Source of the DNA: an uncultured Candidatus Saccharibacteria bacterium
GTDB lineage: Bacteria > Patescibacteriota > Minisyncoccia > Phycocordibacterales > XYD1-FULL-46-19
Assembly: GCA_964510655.1 (NCBI GenBank)
Contig: CAZEAY010000003.1
Location: forward strand, 18,924-82,923
DNA: 64,000 nt
Reading direction: 5' to 3'
In this document: piece after piece, positions 28,528-63,568 of the stretch
How the letters are laid out: each line of letters opens with the position of its first letter
How positions within the stretch are numbered: position 1 is the stretch's first letter
Translations under genes and position numbers: made by a program
Notes under the pieces: generated by a model
Told to the model about the DNA's origin: nothing
The model's input: the letters and a program-made list of their open reading frames with translations, nothing else
Databases searched by the model: none

Positions 28528-28556
28528 ATCATACCAAAAATCAACTCAAGGTAAAA

Positions 28557-28592
28557 CCCAGCGACTGTGGATATATATCCACAGTCGCTGGG
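28557..28592. repeat. 36-nt perfect palindrome containing inverted DnaA-box-like half-sites
   Basis: CCCAGCGACTGTGGATAT/ATATCCACAGTCGCTGGG. TGTGGATAT matches 8 of 9 positions of the reverse-complemented TTATCCACA. Confidence 0.5.
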
Positions 28593-28604
28593 TAGATGTA
28601 ATGT

Positions 28605-36086: not shown

Positions 36087-36248
36087 TCCATTACATGGAC
36101 GATACAGCTTTCCCATTTGTTCAGATGGGTACATCCTCACAAATAAGGGAGAAGCTCTTCGATTCCTGTACGCAAGGTGCGCAGACACCTTGCTCGAGGT
36201 CACAAAATTAACAAAAGCCACTTTAAACAGTGGCTTTTGTTAATTTTG

Positions 36249-36320
36249 TGACCTCGACAGGAATCGAACCTGTATCGTGGGATCCGCAATCCCATATTCT
36301 ATCCGTTGAACTACGAGGCC
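36249..36320 (-). tRNA. tRNA-Arg (anticodon read as GCG)
   Basis: Acceptor GGCCTCG/CGAGGTC, D-loop AACGGATA, anticodon stem TGGGA/TCCCA with loop TTGCGGA, T-loop TTCGATT. The anticodon assignment depends on my stem choice. Confidence 0.65.
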
Positions 36321-48778: not shown

Positions 48779-48963
48779 ATGAAATTCCGCCTTCGGGCGG
48801 TTTTTTATTTACCCTCAATTATATCGTTAGGAGAGATATTTAGATATCCACTTCCCTCTTCTTTGTTTCCATGCAAGTAATGTGTTTAGGATATTAAATA
48901 ATTCTAATTTTCTCCCCTTTTTAATTTCTACTTTCCAATTTTTAATTATATAATTGATAGCGT

Positions 48964-50658
48964 ATGCTCACCTTCGACGAAGATAAACAAAATAAACGAG
49001 TCGATGAACTTCATCTTAAAGAAGCGGAAGGGTTGGCGCAAATGTTGTCACAAAAATACCGGCTACCCTACATTGATTTAACTAAATCTTCTATCAATAC
49101 CGATGCTTTGCGCTTGGTCCCCGAAGACGAAGCACGTTCGGCTGGCATTGCCCCCTTTAAACTACTGGGACGAAATGTTGATATTGCTATTATTACTCCC
49201 AACAACCCAATGATTGCTGATATTGTACGCACTCTTCAAGAAAATAAAGGTATCACCGCCCATCTTTATCTCGCCTCTCAAAGTAGTCTCGATCACGCCT
49301 GGGAACGCTACAAAGAAGCAGGAAAAAGTACTCAAACCGACGCGGGAGTCATTCAGATTTCCGACGAAGCCATTGCTAAATACCTATCAGAATTTAAAAC
49401 AATTGAAGATGTAAAAACAACTCTAGATAAAGAGATTGAAGAAAGTTTACAAATTGGTGGTATTTCAAACTTACTAGAAGTAATTCTTTCTGGCGCTCTT
49501 TCCACCAATGCCTCCGACATCCACATCGAACCAGAAGAGACAACCATCCGTCTTCGTTATCGCTTAGATGGCGTGCTTCACGACGTCGCTGATATTGATA
49601 GTCGTCTCTTCCGTCAAATTGCGGCTCGATTGAAATTAGTTTCCGGAATGAAACTAAATATTCAACAAGCAGCCCAAGATGGACGTTTCGCCATTAAAGT
49701 AGAAGGAACAGAAATAGAAATTCGTGCCTCTATTATCCCTGGTTCCTATGGCGAATCAGTAGTTATGCGTGTTCTTAATCCAAAAAGTATCAATGTGACT
49801 TTTGATAATCTTGGAGTAGATGAACAGCTTTATAAAATATTTGCCAAGGAAATTTCCCGACCAAACGGGATGATTCTTCTCACTGGTCCTACTGGATCTG
49901 GTAAAACAACCACCCTTTATTCTTTTCTTCGTAAAGTAAATTCCACCGAGTCAAAGATTATTACTATTGAAGATCCGATTGAATATCACTTGGAGGGAAT
50001 AAACCAGACTCAAGTAAATCGAACCAAGGGCTACACTTTCCTGTCCGGCTTGCGCGCTTCCCTGCGTCAGGACCCTGACATTATCATGGTGGGAGAAATC
50101 CGTGACTCTGAAACAGCTAAAATTGCCGTAAATGCGTCTTTGACTGGGCACTTGGTCTTTTCCACTCTTCACACCAACAACGCGGCTGGAGCAATTCCAC
50201 GCCTAATTGACCTGGGGGTGAATGCAAAAATCTTGACCTCGGCTCTAACCTTACCAATCGCCCAACGTCTAGTTCGTCGCTTATGCCCTGTCTGTAAAAA
50301 AGAAGATGTTCCAACTCCTGAAGAAAAAAGTTTAATTGACAACGTGGTTACCACTATTAAGAAAAAGAAACCGGAATTGGTTCTACCACAAACAGAAAAG
50401 GTTTGGCGACCAGTCGGCTGTGAGAAATGTAATAAAACTGGTTACAAAGGCCGGGTGGGTGTCTACGAAGCAATCGTTATGGATGACGCGGTCGCTAAGG
50501 TAACAATTGAAAATCCGAGTGAAAAAGAAATCAAAATTGCTGCCATTCCTCAAGGAATTTTGGATATGCGCCAAGATGGTATTCTGAAAATTTTGACAGG
50601 AATAACAGATATGTCAGAACTAGGTCGTGTGGTTGATTTAACAGAAGAGTTTATATAA
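48964..50658 (+). CDS. pilB: type IV pilus assembly ATPase PilB (GspE family), native copy
   Basis: GspII_E N-terminal domain, Walker A LTGPTGSGKTTT, Asp and His boxes, tetracysteine CPVC...CEKC. AT-rich, no SD. Confidence 0.9.
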   Translation: MLTFDEDKQNKRVDELHLKEAEGLAQMLSQKYRLPYIDLTKSSINTDALRLVPEDEARSAGIAPFKLLGRNVDIAIITPNNPMIADIVRTLQENKGITAHLYLASQSSLDHAWERYKEAGKSTQTDAGVIQISDEAIAKYLSEFKTIEDVKTTLDKEIEESLQIGGISNLLEVILSGALSTNASDIHIEPEETTIRLRYRLDGVLHDVADIDSRLFRQIAARLKLVSGMKLNIQQAAQDGRFAIKVEGTEIEIRASIIPGSYGESVVMRVLNPKSINVTFDNLGVDEQLYKIFAKEISRPNGMILLTGPTGSGKTTTLYSFLRKVNSTESKIITIEDPIEYHLEGINQTQVNRTKGYTFLSGLRASLRQDPDIIMVGEIRDSETAKIAVNASLTGHLVFSTLHTNNAAGAIPRLIDLGVNAKILTSALTLPIAQRLVRRLCPVCKKEDVPTPEEKSLIDNVVTTIKKKKPELVLPQTEKVWRPVGCEKCNKTGYKGRVGVYEAIVMDDAVAKVTIENPSEKEIKIAAIPQGILDMRQDGILKILTGITDMSELGRVVDLTEEFI

Positions 50659-50781
50659 AGTGAAATAAGAAATAAGTATCGAAAAAATAAGAATAGATTC
50701 CCTTGCTCATTAAAAATTGAATTACCCTTTTCCCAGCCACACCCTCCTTAATTCTCTCATTCAGAAAATTTTTAACCCAAA

Positions 50782-50893
50782 AAGCTCGTTGGCTACTTAA
50801 TTTAGGAAATATCGCGCAGACCGACTGGTCGAGCGTAAGAATTTTCTAGCAAGAAAATATCTGTGTTTCCTAAATTAAGTAGCCAACGAGCTT
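50782..50893. repeat. 28-bp perfect inverted repeat flanking a 56-nt spacer (MITE-like or structured element)
   Basis: AAGCTCGTTGGCTACTTAATTTAGGAAA (50782-50809) and its exact reverse complement (50866-50893). Confidence 0.5.
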
Positions 50894-50936
50894 CGCGAAC
50901 AAAAAAGTTTTTTGAACCGGAGAAATTAAGACCACA

Positions 50937-51080
50937 AACCTCTAAGCAATCCCTCAGGTCCTGCAACTTGAGTTAGAAATTCCCTCTAGGATAGTCCCAG
51001 TAGCGACTCGCAAGCGAGCCAACCAGGGCGTCCTGTTAAAAAAATCCGTAAAGCGTAAACGCTTTAATTGCTTAGAGGTT
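50937..51080. repeat. 14-bp inverted repeat enclosing a 116-nt GC-rich segment
   Basis: AACCTCTAAGCAAT (50937-50950) and ATTGCTTAGAGGTT (51067-51080). The interior is GC-rich with several short hairpins. Confidence 0.4.
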
Positions 51081-51202
51081 TATGTTCTTAATGAATGTTA
51101 AATTCACCTAAAACTTTTTCTGGAAACAAAAAAGTTTGCTTATTTGTTTCCCCAGAAGAAGCTTTTAGCAAACTAAGAGTATCTTAGCATAAAAAGGTTT
51201 CT

Positions 51203-52240
51203 ATGTCAAGTCTAGACCCTATCACCAACAATGACGAGCCAAACAATGGCTTAGATGAACGTTTTTTGGACAAATCACTCCGTCCGACTGTTTGGGATGA
51301 ATATATTGGGCAAGAGAGCATTAAGGATAATCTAAAGATTTTAATTGGAGCAGCCGCTGGGCGCAAACACCCACCAGAACATCTTCTTTTTTATGGTCCA
51401 CCAGGATTAGGCAAGACTACTCTCGCTCATTTGATTGCCAAACAAATGAATGCTCAACTAAAAGTCACCTCTGGACCGGCCGTAGAAAAAGTTGGTGACC
51501 TAGCTTCAATCCTAACCAATCTTTCTGAAGGTGATATTTTATTTATCGATGAAATTCATCGCTTAAACAAAATGATTGAAGAGGTTTTGTATCCCGCCAT
51601 GGAATCTGGGGTTTTAAATATTATTATCGGCAAAGGCCCGGGCGCGCGCGTAATCCAATTAGATTTACCACCATTTACCTTAATCGCCGCCACCACTCGC
51701 GTAGCTCTCCTCTCTTCTCCACTGCGCTCACGATTTTCCGGCGGAACTCATCGTCTAGAATTTTATACCGAAGCCGAGATTAAAAAAATTATTCTGCGTT
51801 CAGCAAAAATATTACAAATTGAAATTAGCGATGAAGCCGCTCTAGAGATTGCTCGTCGTGCTCGTTTTACTCCCCGGATTGCGAATCAACTCCTTAAACG
51901 TTGTCGCGACTACGCTCAACTTAAAAACAGTTCGATTGATTTAAAAATTGTTAAAGAGGCTCTTAATATGCTCGGTATTGATGAGATTGGTCTAACCACC
52001 CAAGATCGAAAAATTCTGGATATAATTATTTCCAAATTTAACGGTGGGCCAGTGGGTTTGGGAACAGTCGCTACCGCCATGAGCGAAGAAGATGCCACCA
52101 TTGAAGAAGTAAATGAACCCTACTTGATCCAACTAGGTTTAATGGAACGAACTCCCCGCGGTCGAGTCGCCACCAAAAAAGCTTATGAACATTTAGGGTA
52201 TGATTTCCCTAAAAACAAACAGGAAAGTTTGAGTATTTAA
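51203..52240 (+). CDS. ruvB: Holliday junction helicase RuvB
   Basis: LLFYGPPGLGKTTLA Walker A, DEIHRL Walker B, sensor and winged-helix C-terminus. Confidence 0.95.
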   Translation: MSSLDPITNNDEPNNGLDERFLDKSLRPTVWDEYIGQESIKDNLKILIGAAAGRKHPPEHLLFYGPPGLGKTTLAHLIAKQMNAQLKVTSGPAVEKVGDLASILTNLSEGDILFIDEIHRLNKMIEEVLYPAMESGVLNIIIGKGPGARVIQLDLPPFTLIAATTRVALLSSPLRSRFSGGTHRLEFYTEAEIKKIILRSAKILQIEISDEAALEIARRARFTPRIANQLLKRCRDYAQLKNSSIDLKIVKEALNMLGIDEIGLTTQDRKILDIIISKFNGGPVGLGTVATAMSEEDATIEEVNEPYLIQLGLMERTPRGRVATKKAYEHLGYDFPKNKQESLSI

Positions 52241-54576: not shown

Positions 54577-54682
54577 AATTAATCATAGCAGATTTTTGTT
54601 TCCTGACAATTTTTGACTTTCCCTAGTCTAATTCATATACTGGGGATAATCTTTATCCGCCAAAGTTTTTGCCAATGGCATT

Positions 54683-54952
54683 ATGCAATACGTCTATGTA
54701 ATATACAGCAAAAGTGCTGGAGAGCTTTATACAGACTGTACAAATGATCTAAAGAAAAGACTTGCATTGAATAATGCCAGAAAAGTAAAATCAATAATGG
54801 GGAAAGTTCCATTCGAGCTCGTGTTTTATGAAGCATTTTCTAATAAACATGATGGGTTCGAACGAGAGCAATATTTAAAAACTGGATGGGGAAGAAATTA
54901 TATTAAAAAAGTCGCTCGAAATTATTTTATTGGCAAAAATTTAGGAGGATAA
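54683..54952 (+). CDS. GIY-YIG nuclease-domain protein (YhbQ/UPF0213-like)
   Basis: YVYVIYS...GELYTDCTNDLKKRL...H block of GIY-YIG. Confidence 0.7.
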   Translation: MQYVYVIYSKSAGELYTDCTNDLKKRLALNNARKVKSIMGKVPFELVFYEAFSNKHDGFEREQYLKTGWGRNYIKKVARNYFIGKNLGG

Positions 54953-55489
54953 ATGTCAGGACATAATAAATGGTCACAAATTAAAGTACAAAAAGGAAAG
55001 ACCGATGCTCAAAAAAGCAAAGTTTTTACTATGTATGCCAAAATCATTACGATGGAAGCTAAAAAAGCCAAGGGCGATAAAAATGCTCCAGGACTAAAAG
55101 CGGCTATCGAGCGAGCTAAATCATTTAACGTTCCCAATGATAATATCGACCGTGCGATTAAAAAAGGTGTTGGTTCAGAAAGTAACTCACTAGAGGAGGT
55201 TATTTATGAAGGCTATGGACCAGGTGGAGTAGCTTTCCTCCTGGAAGGAATCACTGACAACAAAAACCGCACGACTCAAGAAATAAAACACATTCTTTCG
55301 CGTAATGGCGGGAATTTAGGTCTCCAGGGTTCGGTGATGTGGGCGTTTCAAAAAACGGCTGACGGCTATGAAGCAATTTCTCCGATGGATATTTCCGAAA
55401 CAGACAAAGAAGCCGTTGAAAGACTTTATGTAGAACTTGAAGACTACGAAGACATCAAAAGCATTTTTACCAATGCTAATTTAGACTAA
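54953..55489 (+). CDS. YebC/PmpR-family DNA-binding regulator (short form)
   Basis: MSGHNKWSQIKVQKGKTDAQKSKVF N-terminus, in the conserved position upstream of ruvC. Confidence 0.8.
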   Translation: MSGHNKWSQIKVQKGKTDAQKSKVFTMYAKIITMEAKKAKGDKNAPGLKAAIERAKSFNVPNDNIDRAIKKGVGSESNSLEEVIYEGYGPGGVAFLLEGITDNKNRTTQEIKHILSRNGGNLGLQGSVMWAFQKTADGYEAISPMDISETDKEAVERLYVELEDYEDIKSIFTNANLD

Positions 55490-61765: not shown

Positions 61766-63127
61766 TTAATTATTGTAAAGCAAGACTCTAATTTGATCTA
61801 TTTCCTGGCTAAGTAAGTCGTCACTCTTTATATCCCCTTTTATTTTTTCATAAGCGTGGATAACAGTGGTATGGTCTCTTCCTCCCATTTTTTGTCCGAT
61901 ATAAGGATAAGAAGTATTAAAATCTTCCCGTAAAATATACATAATAATTTGCCTTGGTTTAACAACTTCTTTTCTTCGGCTTTTTTCAAATAACATTTTT
62001 TCTTCAATGTTATAGAAATTGGATATTACACTTATCACTTCTTTAGTAGAGACGGTCTTTTGAGGCTTTATACTGTTCTTAATCAAGAGTTTAACCTCGG
62101 GGACTGTTAAGTTCTTGTTTTTGGCCTGTGATTGGCATATAACCGAATTTAAAGCCCCTTCTAGCTCACGAATACTGTCTTGAACAACAGAAGCTAGATA
62201 TTCTATTACTTCATCGGAGATTTGGAGGTTATTGTTTTTTACCTTAGAACGTAAAATAGCCAAACGAGACTCATAATCTGGTCTAGCCACATCAACAATC
62301 ATCCCCCCCTCAAAACGGGAGCGTAATCTTTCCTCTAGATTTTGGATATATTTTGGTGGTTTATCGGATGAAAAGATAATTTGCTTATTGTTTTCATAAA
62401 AACTATTGAATAAGTGGAAAAGTTCCTCTTGGGTTTTATCTTTGTTTGAGAAAAATTGAACATCATCCATAATAATCACATCATATTTTCGATATTTTTC
62501 CTTAAATTGCCCAACCTTATTGTTTATTACGGAATTTATGTAATCTGTAGAGAAAGTTTCAGAGGTTAAGTAGAAAATTTTCTTATTTTCATTTTGACGC
62601 TTGATATGATTGCCAATTGATTGAATTAAGTGGGTTTTACCCAAACCCGTCCCCCCATAGATGTATAGAGGGTTGTAGTTCATTCCTGGGTTCTTAACAA
62701 CCGCTTGAGCAGCGGCATAAGCAACTTCATTGAAAGGGCCAACAATAAATGATTCAAAGGTATATTTAGGATTTAAATTACTGTCCCTATTTACATATAG
62801 TTCGTTGAGGCCTAATTGATCGGTGGTGGCCATCTTAAGACTTTGTTCTTCAGCTGCTTTAGTTTTGTTTCTGTCTTCTATTTTAGAGATGGTGTACTCC
62901 AAAGCTCTTACCTCAGGAGAAGCATCTCTTAAAGCCTTAAGAATAAATTTATGATATTTGTTTAGTAACCAGTCACGAACAAAGGTGTTTGGGACACTAA
63001 GGTAGACCACCCCTTGATCTTGTTTTGAAATGAAAGTGTTTTTAAACCAGGTTCCGAAACTTGCCTTGGAAATTGTTAACTCTATCTCGGCCAGAGCCAT
63101 GTCCCAAAGTTTTTTGTTTTCTAACAT
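61766..63127 (-). CDS. dnaA: chromosomal replication initiator DnaA
   Basis: AAA+ GGTGLGKTHL, sensor motifs and the C-terminal DNA-binding domain (DHTTVIHAYEKI). Confidence 0.95.
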   Translation of the reverse strand: MLENKKLWDMALAEIELTISKASFGTWFKNTFISKQDQGVVYLSVPNTFVRDWLLNKYHKFILKALRDASPEVRALEYTISKIEDRNKTKAAEEQSLKMATTDQLGLNELYVNRDSNLNPKYTFESFIVGPFNEVAYAAAQAVVKNPGMNYNPLYIYGGTGLGKTHLIQSIGNHIKRQNENKKIFYLTSETFSTDYINSVINNKVGQFKEKYRKYDVIIMDDVQFFSNKDKTQEELFHLFNSFYENNKQIIFSSDKPPKYIQNLEERLRSRFEGGMIVDVARPDYESRLAILRSKVKNNNLQISDEVIEYLASVVQDSIRELEGALNSVICQSQAKNKNLTVPEVKLLIKNSIKPQKTVSTKEVISVISNFYNIEEKMLFEKSRRKEVVKPRQIIMYILREDFNTSYPYIGQKMGGRDHTTVIHAYEKIKGDIKSDDLLSQEIDQIRVLLYNN

Positions 63128-63433
63128 GGTATTTAAAAAAAATTATCTCAGAGTGATTAAAAGTTTCTTAATTATACGCTTGGGGATAAGTATATCAATA
63201 TTGCGGGAGTGGTGGATAAGTTGTGGATTACGGTGGATATCTCTCGCCTTATTATTTGTGGAAGACATATATTTCCTTGTTAGGAAATTATTCACTCTCA
63301 GCGCCTTCGCGCTTCCGAGGGCATCCACAAATAATAAGGCTCGTTCTTGCTGTAAAAATCCTTCTTAGGTTGCAGGCGGCTAATTTATTAGATTAACTAT
63401 TGATTTATTGGAAAAACCTGTTATACTATCCAC
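63128..63433. promoter_or_regulatory. DnaA-box cluster upstream of dnaA (oriC/dnaA promoter region)
   Basis: TGGGGATAAG, GGTGGATAAGTTGTGGATTACGGTGGATAT, CATCCACAAAT, CTATCCACATG. Confidence 0.5.
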
Positions 63434-63568
63434 ATGTCATTTACCTATAAACCAAAAAACAGAAAGCGTAATAAAACCCACGGTTTTTTAGTTCGTACTA
63501 AAACTTCTTCTGGTAAAAAAGTAATCGCTCGACGTCGAGCTAAAGGACGAGCCAAGTTGTCTGTCTAA
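63434..63568 (+). CDS. rpmH: 50S ribosomal protein L34
   Basis: [44 protein letters not shown], 44 aa. Confidence 0.85.

Follow-up and report, generated by a model that had tools for sequence, protein, structure and literature searches.

The repetitive extragenic palindromic (REP) sequences and the REPIN elements are mobilised by RAYT, or TnpA-REP, tyrosine HUH transposases, and the RAYT gene is usually REP-flanked. The Correia/NEMIS (Neisseria), ERIC/IRU (enterobacteria), RUP and BOX (pneumococcus), and RPE (Rickettsia) elements resemble miniature inverted-repeat transposable elements (MITEs), and form long hairpins when transcribed. The genomes of the candidate phyla radiation (CPR, Patescibacteria) are regarded as streamlined and repeat-poor. 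A published study describes REPINs as mobile DNA that forms hairpins, often with compensatory changes and with copies in clusters (PMC3116915). The locus analyzed here is a perfect 28-bp inverted repeat in the spacer between pilB and ruvB of a CPR bacterium, within 64,000 nucleotides (nt) of contig CAZEAY010000003.1; this whole stretch is called the window. The repeat is probably the stem of one copy of a REP/MITE-like palindromic DNA repeat family in Paceibacterota (CPR), nested in the probable terminator of pilB. That its hairpin (HP1) belongs to a structured palindromic repeat family can be stated with high confidence; confidence in DNA-level mobility as the mechanism is moderate. The family is best regarded as working like a REP/MITE-type palindromic repeat, and lies outside every named family.

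The left arm of the repeat, AAGCTCGTTGGCTACTTAATTTAGGAAA, and its exact reverse complement enclose a 56-nt loop, and the unit takes 112 nt. The arms continue imperfectly to 45 nt (50765-50910) with 82% complementarity. The parts of the hairpin are as follows.

50782 to 50809, plus strand: left arm of the perfect repeat, in the outer stem of HP1 (the family copy WIN1), from the sequence
50866 to 50893, plus strand: right arm of the perfect repeat, from the sequence
50789 to 50886, plus strand: the 98-nt element proper, with 21-bp stems and the 56-nt core, from the filled/empty site comparison
50810 to 50865, plus strand: conserved 56-nt apical core with a three-way junction, from folding and structural alignment
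50765 to 50910, plus strand: the composite hairpin as a whole, with an imperfect inverted repeat (TCAGAAAAYT ... ARTTTTCTGA) on its outside; this outer repeat is conserved in filled and empty relatives

A sequence-only reading had described a perfect 28-bp repeat with a 56-nt spacer, about 112 bp in all, in a pilB-ruvB intergenic region of about 540 bp. The arms are exact at these positions, both flanking genes were confirmed by Pfam, and the spacer measures 544 nt. The 28-mer was unmatched in shuffles of the window that preserved its dinucleotide composition. HP1 folds as RNA with -65.9 kcal/mol (z = -11.6). As single-stranded DNA, the two strands fold equally (-42.2 and -40.3 kcal/mol). The only open reading frame (ORF) of at least 40 aa in the element (50802-50966, minus strand, 54 aa) has no Pfam match.

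Perfect inverted repeats with arms of at least 14 bp occur 10 times in the window, including one of 29 bp, and not at all in the shuffles. Long perfect palindromes are a trait of this genome. The earlier remark that the stem is far longer than that of a terminator is qualified by these numbers, although the repeat is real. Since so many perfect palindromes of 14-29 bp stand at gene ends, HP1 could be taken for an ordinary long terminator palindrome, or for a chance repeat without relatives. This explanation is refuted by the family and can practically be dismissed: the shuffles lack the 28-mer, and the 56-nt apex is conserved with covariation in at least 12 copies from different genomes and loci. 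The ordinary palindromes of the window, eight of the 10, have loops of 0-7 nt, whereas the two with long loops (56 and 61 nt) are WIN1 and a second family copy, WIN2.

Relatives of the spacer were searched by blastn and nhmmer against 80 ruvB loci, and closer relatives were added later through PilB1 homologues. All the sampled loci centre on ruvB or pilB, near the replication origin, with about 10-20 kb per genome. RuvB relatives place the organism in the CPR (Ca. Vogelbacteria/Paceibacterota), and the best genome match has 89% RuvB identity; an exact-protein look-up of the RuvB of the window gave no record. Family copies were searched with a two-sequence profile, then with a core-only profile and a closing-inverted-repeat test, and then with a covariance model, R1. 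This model was built from the ungapped alignment of four orthologues, and the remaining copies were aligned by Infernal. A MAFFT alignment of six copies with their stems misaligned the stem ends, and was not used for the model. R1 identified 12 confident copies in 968 kb of related sequence; its match to WIN1 covers 50796-50879 with 103.7 bits. Five further copies, one truncated by a contig end, were found in the loci L084, L090, and L091. The two-sequence profile gave the following copies.

L005: family copy after ruvC
L024: family copy on the opposite strand, between ruvC and pilB
L061: family copy upstream of pilB
L033: family copy after pilB
L023: degenerate family copy after polA

Copies also lie between pilB and the structured RNA HP2 in L033, and upstream of HP2 in L011. 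The L011 hairpin stands at the HP1 position and has the same layout, with a long stem, a three-way junction, and GC-rich and AU-rich hairpins. The L005 (after ruvC) and L011 copies are homologous over their full length despite their different loci. In L001, the closest genome relative, another hairpin takes the HP1 position. A family copy lies at or right next to the end of two contigs (L011:1-112 and L090:9007-9074). Such contig ends fit a repeat that breaks short-read assemblies, and hint at more copies per genome than the fragments display.

The family is apparently undescribed. A search of the whole window against Rfam 15 at the gathering score identified tRNAs only. At an E-value of up to 10, the spacer gave generic sub-threshold matches to long hairpins, such as miRNA precursor models (33-41 bits, against gathering scores of 87-140). 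Full-text literature searches gave no account of palindromic repeats, MITEs, or structured RNAs of this sort in the CPR. No match was found by blastn in phage and plasmid collections. In viral contigs, the arm 20-mer was unmatched, and the two matches to a degenerate hairpin-B pattern were both rejected by the covariance model. The arm 20-mer matched metagenome contigs twice, both times in the same membrane-protein coding sequence and with no inverted partner, and these matches were ascribed to chance; the window's own locus is absent from those contigs, so they are uninformative on copy number.

Every copy has a conserved three-way apex, made of two small hairpins, on top of a long Watson-Crick stem of copy-specific sequence. 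The copies are about 85-115 nt long. The small hairpins of WIN1 are given below.

50813 to 50835, plus strand: core hairpin A, with a 3-bp lower stem, a purine-rich internal loop, a 4-bp GC-rich stem (GACC/GGTC), and the tetraloop GACT; both stems covary
50838 to 50862, plus strand: core hairpin B, AU-rich, AGAATTTTCT-AGCA-AGAAAAT[A]TCT, from the structural alignment; followed by GTG at 50863 to 50865

The internal loop of hairpin A is GCA/GA in the window copy and GA/GA in several other copies. In most copies hairpin B carries a bulged A, which L011 and L005 lack, and its loop mostly reads ANYA. From copy to copy the sequence of the outer arms changes, also between the two copies of the window and between orthologous sites; the only arm sequence common to the copies is a loose inner motif, nnTTnTTTnnGAAA.

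The pairing is kept through these changes. A hand-made structural alignment of seven copies contains 180 pairs (outer stem and both stems of hairpin A), with one mismatch and no wobble. In the model alignment of 12 copies, 95.7% of the cells are paired, and double changes occur in 27 of the 31 pairs; double-change cells number 116, and wobble cells 3. Covariation scores 0.84, where shuffles give 0.26 and slid registers no more than 0.17. The model alignment was fitted to R1, which biases it towards the structure; both the slid controls and the hand-made alignment, which is independent of it, are in agreement. The four orthologues alone have double changes in 18 of 31 pairs and no wobble, and some of the double changes in their outer stems are paired one-base-pair indels that shift the register. 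All four helices covary, and both small hairpins do so unambiguously (GACC/GGTC, GGCC/GGCC, and GTGC/GCAC; TTTTCT/AGAAAA and TTTCCC/GGGAAA). Covariation in the internal hairpins indicates selection on structure, not on the end sequence.

The type of covariation was compared with that of a neighbouring RNA of the same spacer.

50923 to 51095, plus strand: HP2, a structured RNA upstream of ruvB and outside the repeat family, used as internal control for RNA-type covariation

G·U pairs make up 0.8% of the cells in the family, compared with 5.4% in HP2 (Fisher p = 2.7e-5). When the G·U pairs were counted by strand, the family showed no bias (3 versus 5), whereas HP2 had 65 on the plus strand versus 23 on the minus strand. 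Among the non-Watson-Crick cells of the family, 3 of 19 are G·U, where about 2 in 12 would be expected if wobble had no special status. The family avoids wobble, unlike an RNA under selection such as HP2, which suggests that the pairing is kept, and the palindrome maintained, at the DNA level. Wobble frequency and strand bias, compared between the family and HP2, provide a practical way, internal to these genomes, of telling DNA palindromes from RNA structures.

These results bear on a second explanation, in which HP1 acts in transcripts as a structured RNA, with a long double-stranded stem and a protein-binding three-way apex. It would extend an intrinsic terminator, stabilise 3' ends, or be processed by RNase III between pilB and the HP2-ruvB transcript, and the family would recur as a cis-acting RNA motif instead of moving as DNA. 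The sequence-only reading had also offered a transcribed long-hairpin RNA. The very stable RNA fold, the covariation of the four helices, and the pairing kept in place in orthologues would all suit such a role. So would the conserved unpaired nucleotides, which are strand-specific and include a tandem GA/GA-type loop; loops of this type are common in RNA. With respect to genes in the same orientation, most copies stand either 9-181 nt past a stop codon or immediately upstream, and HP1 sits within an A-tract/stem/T-tract hairpin right after pilB. Against this stand the near absence of G·U without strand asymmetry, compared with its frequency and strong plus bias for HP2 in the same genomes, as well as the antisense copies between co-oriented genes in L091 and L090. 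The copy number of 0, 1, or 3 in the same spacer among close relatives, the absence of an Rfam family, and the absence of a T-tract directly after the window stem also disfavour it. An RNA role is thus possible, and clearly less probable than a DNA repeat.

The case for a DNA repeat is extended by the filled and empty sites among relatives, for which the genes and the basal stem have to be named.

48964 to 50658, plus strand: pilB1, encoding a PilB-type T2SSE ATPase, by Pfam
51203 to 52240, plus strand: ruvB, the downstream gene, by Pfam
50778 to 50788, plus strand: A-tract with the 5' side of the basal stem, CAAAAAGCTCG; its homologue in L090 and L087 is the 5' half of the plain hairpin downstream of pilB (AAAAAACTCC)
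50887 to 50895, plus strand: 3' half of the basal stem, CGAGCTTCG, homologous to GGAGTTTT in empty-site relatives

The composite hairpin starts 107 nt after the pilB1 stop codon (at 50765), and the perfect arm 123 nt after it (at 50782). HP1 orthologues stand at the same site in L083/84, L085, and L086 (89-92% PilB1 identity), and are absent from L087 and L090 (87%). The empty site reads AAAAAACTCC, CGAA, and GGAGTTTT in L090, and AATAAACTCCC, TAAC, and GGGAGTTTATT in L087. The filled site reads CAAAAAGCTCG, 98 nt, and CGAGCTTCG in the window; AAAAACTCC, 99 nt, and GGAGTTTGG in L083; AAAAAACTCC, 100 nt, and GGAGTTTTT in L085; and AAAAAATCC, 96 nt, and GGATTTTT in L086. The outer inverted repeat TCAGAAAAYT...ARTTTTCTGA is common to all filled and empty sites. 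The 98-nt palindrome (50789-50886) therefore stands in place of the tetraloop of a small A-tract/stem/T-tract hairpin 3' of pilB, and the 28-bp helix is composite, with 7 bp from the hairpin and 21 bp from the element. The empty-site hairpins (A-tract, CTCC, tetraloop, GGAG, T-tract) follow right after the pilB stop; a consensus terminator scanner calls none of them. The window copy has a degenerate T-tract behind its stem, CGAGCTTCGCG. The small hairpin is probably the intrinsic terminator of pilB. Because homologous copies occur elsewhere, an insertion is a simpler explanation of the filled/empty difference than an apical deletion in L087 and L090.

The repeat also turns over in the wider neighbourhood. 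In L091 (83% PilB1 identity), a spacer of 918 nt contains three copies: a plus-strand pair, both upstream of HP2, and a minus-strand copy between HP2 and ruvB. At its contig end, downstream of HP2, L090 carries a minus-strand copy that is truncated and placed like the third L091 copy. The pilB-ruvB spacer thus holds 0, 1, or 3 copies among close relatives, in both orientations. Such variation in number, position, and orientation is how a proliferating repeat behaves. L024 and its close relative L021 were tried as another filled/empty pair, but their spacers are unalignable, L021 has a different plain palindrome, and no boundary could be drawn. The L021 palindrome (L021:7890-7945) is a perfect 26-bp one with a 3-nt loop, between convergent ruvC and pilB; L024 has there a family copy and other hairpins. 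Gene-end spacers in these genomes seem to turn over long perfect hairpins quickly.

The comparison with a MITE gave a divided picture. The element is small (98-112 nt), non-coding, and bounded by perfect arms of 21-28 bp. Its copies are dispersed and show presence/absence, with two in the 64-kb window, two in 21.7 kb of L086, and three in the L091 spacer. The sequence-only reading had proposed a recent MITE, for which other copies would argue; a dispersed multi-copy family with presence/absence does exist, whereas a recent age, conserved ends, and a target duplication were not supported. The same reading had held that a single copy conserved in position would point to a regulatory hairpin rather than a mobile element. 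The position is indeed kept in L083/84, L085, and L086, but the element is not a single copy.

Several observations weigh against a mobile DNA repeat. No terminal repeat shared between copies was found, and no consistent flanking direct repeat (target-site duplication) was present in seven copies, so that the flanking duplications proposed earlier failed to appear. The CGAG/GCGAG flanks of some copies recur at different loci, and therefore look like part of the element rather than a duplication. No transposase or HUH-type gene, only housekeeping genes, was seen by eye among the ORF translations listed, for which no profile search was made. Copies within one genome are far from identical, which gives no indication of a recent burst. 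Unlike in MITEs and REPINs, conservation lies in the apex and not in the ends. The filled/empty comparison fits an insertion or an apical deletion, and a single site gives a clean comparison. The copy counts cover the ruvB/pilB-centred, origin-proximal stretches alone. The unpaired GA/GA loop, ANYA loop, and bulged A are strand-specific, mostly on the sense strand of the neighbouring gene, which would suit an RNA role; one strand therefore matters, as DNA or as RNA. Orthologues keep the pairing in place across about 20% sequence divergence, so that some host-level or mechanistic maintenance must act, which a purely selfish, immobile insertion would not have.

The family resembles several known systems in part. 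Like REP/REPIN elements, it is a small intergenic palindrome that forms a long hairpin in single-stranded DNA or mRNA, with compensatory changes, clustering in spacers, and a location at gene ends (PMC3116915). However, a REPIN has conserved REP 16-mer ends and a variable spacer, while this family has a conserved 56-nt apex and a variable base. REPIN copies are numerous and similar within a genome, whereas the two window copies are strongly diverged, and no RAYT gene was seen, by eye, in the window translations listed. The Correia/ERIC/RUP-type elements are likewise intergenic and about 100-150 bp long, with long inverted arms, dispersed in both orientations, often co-transcribed, and variably present. 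They have conserved terminal inverted repeats, and Correia has a TA target duplication, whereas the arms here vary and no duplication was found.

IS1397 and ISKpn1 insert into REP loops. The element studied here similarly stands at the exact loop position of an existing hairpin, with both stem halves intact; those are full insertion sequences with a transposase, while this is a 98-nt palindrome without coding capacity. Integron attC sites also keep their structure while the sequence varies, are recognised as a folded single strand, and measure about 60-140 nt. In attC, however, the R/L core sites at the base are conserved, the apex is variable, and extrahelical bases occur; in this family the base varies and the apex is conserved. 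Inspection of 12 aligned copies, without a dedicated attC model, gave no attC core (RYYYAAC/GTTRRRY) at the hairpin base, and there was no integron context. The likeness to parvovirus inverted terminal repeats, such as those of adeno-associated virus, is one of shape only, a long stem with two small hairpins at a three-way junction; unlike those, the family has no viral context and no match in viral or phage collections. A hammerhead or other small ribozyme was considered for the apex and rejected, with no core motifs by eye and no Rfam match.

Under the preferred reading as a REP/MITE-like DNA repeat, the hairpin element would spread, or would have spread, in one piece, probably by way of a step that is structure-specific and may involve single-stranded DNA, and would tend to lodge in or beside existing hairpins. 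Its palindromy might be kept by selection on the DNA hairpin or by arm-to-arm templated correction. Such correction of quasi-palindromes is a known mutational process in E. coli. If pilB termination or ruvB expression were affected at all, this would be a secondary effect. The apex-conserved, base-variable, strictly Watson-Crick layout is the reverse of MITE/REPIN logic, and implies that a folded DNA structure is recognised by some protein, which might be found by phylogenetic profiling. A bolder and tentative proposal is a new structure-specific mobile DNA in ultra-small CPR genomes, with a Y-shaped single-stranded hairpin recognised through its apex, insertion at hairpins and DnaA-box regions, templated palindromy, and a mobilising enzyme. 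Repeats that come and go, nest in a terminator-like hairpin, and sit in the origin region show that CPR spacers are more dynamic than assumed. The long perfect hairpins of these genomes should not be regarded as regulatory RNAs by default.

The second window copy lies close to the probable origin of replication.

63246 to 63340, minus strand: WIN2, a diverged family copy, from the core-only profile (R1 55.1 bits, E = 7e-10)

The stem of WIN2 is perfect over 17 bp (GCCTTATTATTTGTGGA/TCCACAAATAATAAGGC), its core measures 61 nt, and the layout is that of WIN1. WIN2 is located in the spacer between rpmH/rnpA and dnaA, upstream of dnaA, amid DnaA-box-like 9-mers. Its close homologue L086-2 sits upstream of pilB. 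L090 has a copy at the same pilB-upstream site, with the same flanks and an unrelated stem, and the window's own pilB-upstream spacer is empty.

The WIN2 spacer (63128-63440), between dnaA (61766-63127, minus strand) and rpmH/rnpA, contains DnaA-box-like 9-mers at 63181-63189, 63211-63219, 63222-63230, 63232-63240, and 63426-63434. At the right end of the window, cumulative GC skew continues to fall. From these features, 63128-63440 is the probable oriC. A DnaA-box-like conserved box, AGATATCCACTTCCCTCTT (TTATACACTT in L086), also lies upstream of pilB1 at about 48850-48870, and is common to L083, L085, L087, L090, and L086; the WIN2-type copies of L086 and L090 are directly 5' of it. A perfect 19-bp palindrome without a loop, ACCCAGCGACTGTGGATAT/ATATCCACAGTCGCTGGGT, occurs at 28556-28593, and two inverted DnaA-box-like 9-mers form its centre (ATATCCACA). 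The sequence TTATCCACA with at most one mismatch is found 44 times in the window, compared with 18 expected.

The position of WIN2 raises the question of a host DNA structural signal, a cruciform or single-stranded hairpin for replication, segregation, or a nucleoid protein, concentrated near oriC. The strictly Watson-Crick pairing, the equal folding of both strands, and the pairing kept in place would agree with such a signal. WIN2 lies inside a DnaA-box cluster, GC skew puts the origin at its spacer, and the WIN2-type copies of L086 and L090 adjoin the DnaA-box-like motif upstream of pilB. However, origin proximity follows from the ruvB/pilB-centred sampling and is no evidence, and the WIN1-type copies have no adjoining DnaA box. 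The DnaA-box link concerns three copies (WIN2, L086-2, and L090), two of which are orthologous. Nor would one expect a fixed signal to differ between close relatives in how many copies there are, where they lie, and how they are oriented. This explanation is therefore unlikely, and a REP/MITE-like DNA repeat is preferred for WIN2 as for WIN1.

The spacer as a whole folds far below shuffles, with z = -11.5 for the plus and -10.2 for the minus strand. Its hairpin domains are three: HP1, HP2 (50923-51095, with 26-nt arms), and the small HP3 (51122-51151). The spacer is long mainly because it also houses HP2, a conserved structured RNA of about 170 nt. A second PilB paralogue lies 3' of ruvB in convergent orientation.

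HP2, and not HP1, was conserved upstream of ruvB in the blastn and nhmmer comparison of the 80 ruvB loci. RNAalifold found compensatory changes in 20 of its 31 pairs. Its covariance model matched on the ruvB strand in 83 of 85 sources, and in the other two the upstream region is cut by a contig end. Besides the window, 82 related loci thus have HP2, for example at L018:2505-2683, L013:5733-5911, and L001:5652-5823. The structure of HP2 comprises a long stem that closes it, a hairpin on the 5' side, the invariant helix AGGAU/GUCCU, and the conserved single-stranded motifs AGGATAGYCCCAGTA ... AACCAGRRCGTCCT. Given the plus-strand bias of its G·U pairs, HP2 behaves as a plus-strand RNA. No Rfam family was matched by HP2 in 11 diverse related loci. 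Signal recognition particle RNA, RNase P RNA, and 6S RNA were considered for their likeness, with no Rfam match and no identification made. HP2 is a candidate new RNA family, which may act as a ruvB leader or riboswitch, or as a co-transcribed housekeeping non-coding RNA. It may be a more notable by-product than the repeat itself.

The stem of HP3 (TTTCTGGAAACA...TGTTTCCCCAGAA) resembles the minus-strand family copies at the same position (L091:2530-2615 and L090:9007-9074). More speculatively, HP3 could be a core-less remnant of a family copy. The different hairpin at the HP1 position of L001 (L001:5520-5650) is also long, CAGGACGCACGCGTTTGAGTGAA ... TTCACCGAACGCGCGTGTCCTG. Its nhmmer homologues lie about 250-370 nt upstream of ruvB in L034, L020, L045, L032, L046, L026, L037, and L054 (Yonath-/Nomurabacteria-type loci). 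This hairpin may represent a second, unrelated hairpin family at the same spot.

Two other inverted repeats of the window lie outside these subjects. The 29-bp perfect palindrome (36194-36257, with a 6-nt loop) has a right arm that overlaps the 3' end of tRNA-Arg(gcg) (36248-36320, minus strand), and part of the tRNA 3' end is therefore duplicated in inverted form. Further on, a 25-nt inverted repeat (54652-54676/54929-54953, 88% complementary) brackets an 89-aa ORF (54683-54952, plus strand) within 54652-54953. By eye, this ORF resembles a small protein of the GIY-YIG nuclease family, and the unit may be a candidate mini mobile cassette.

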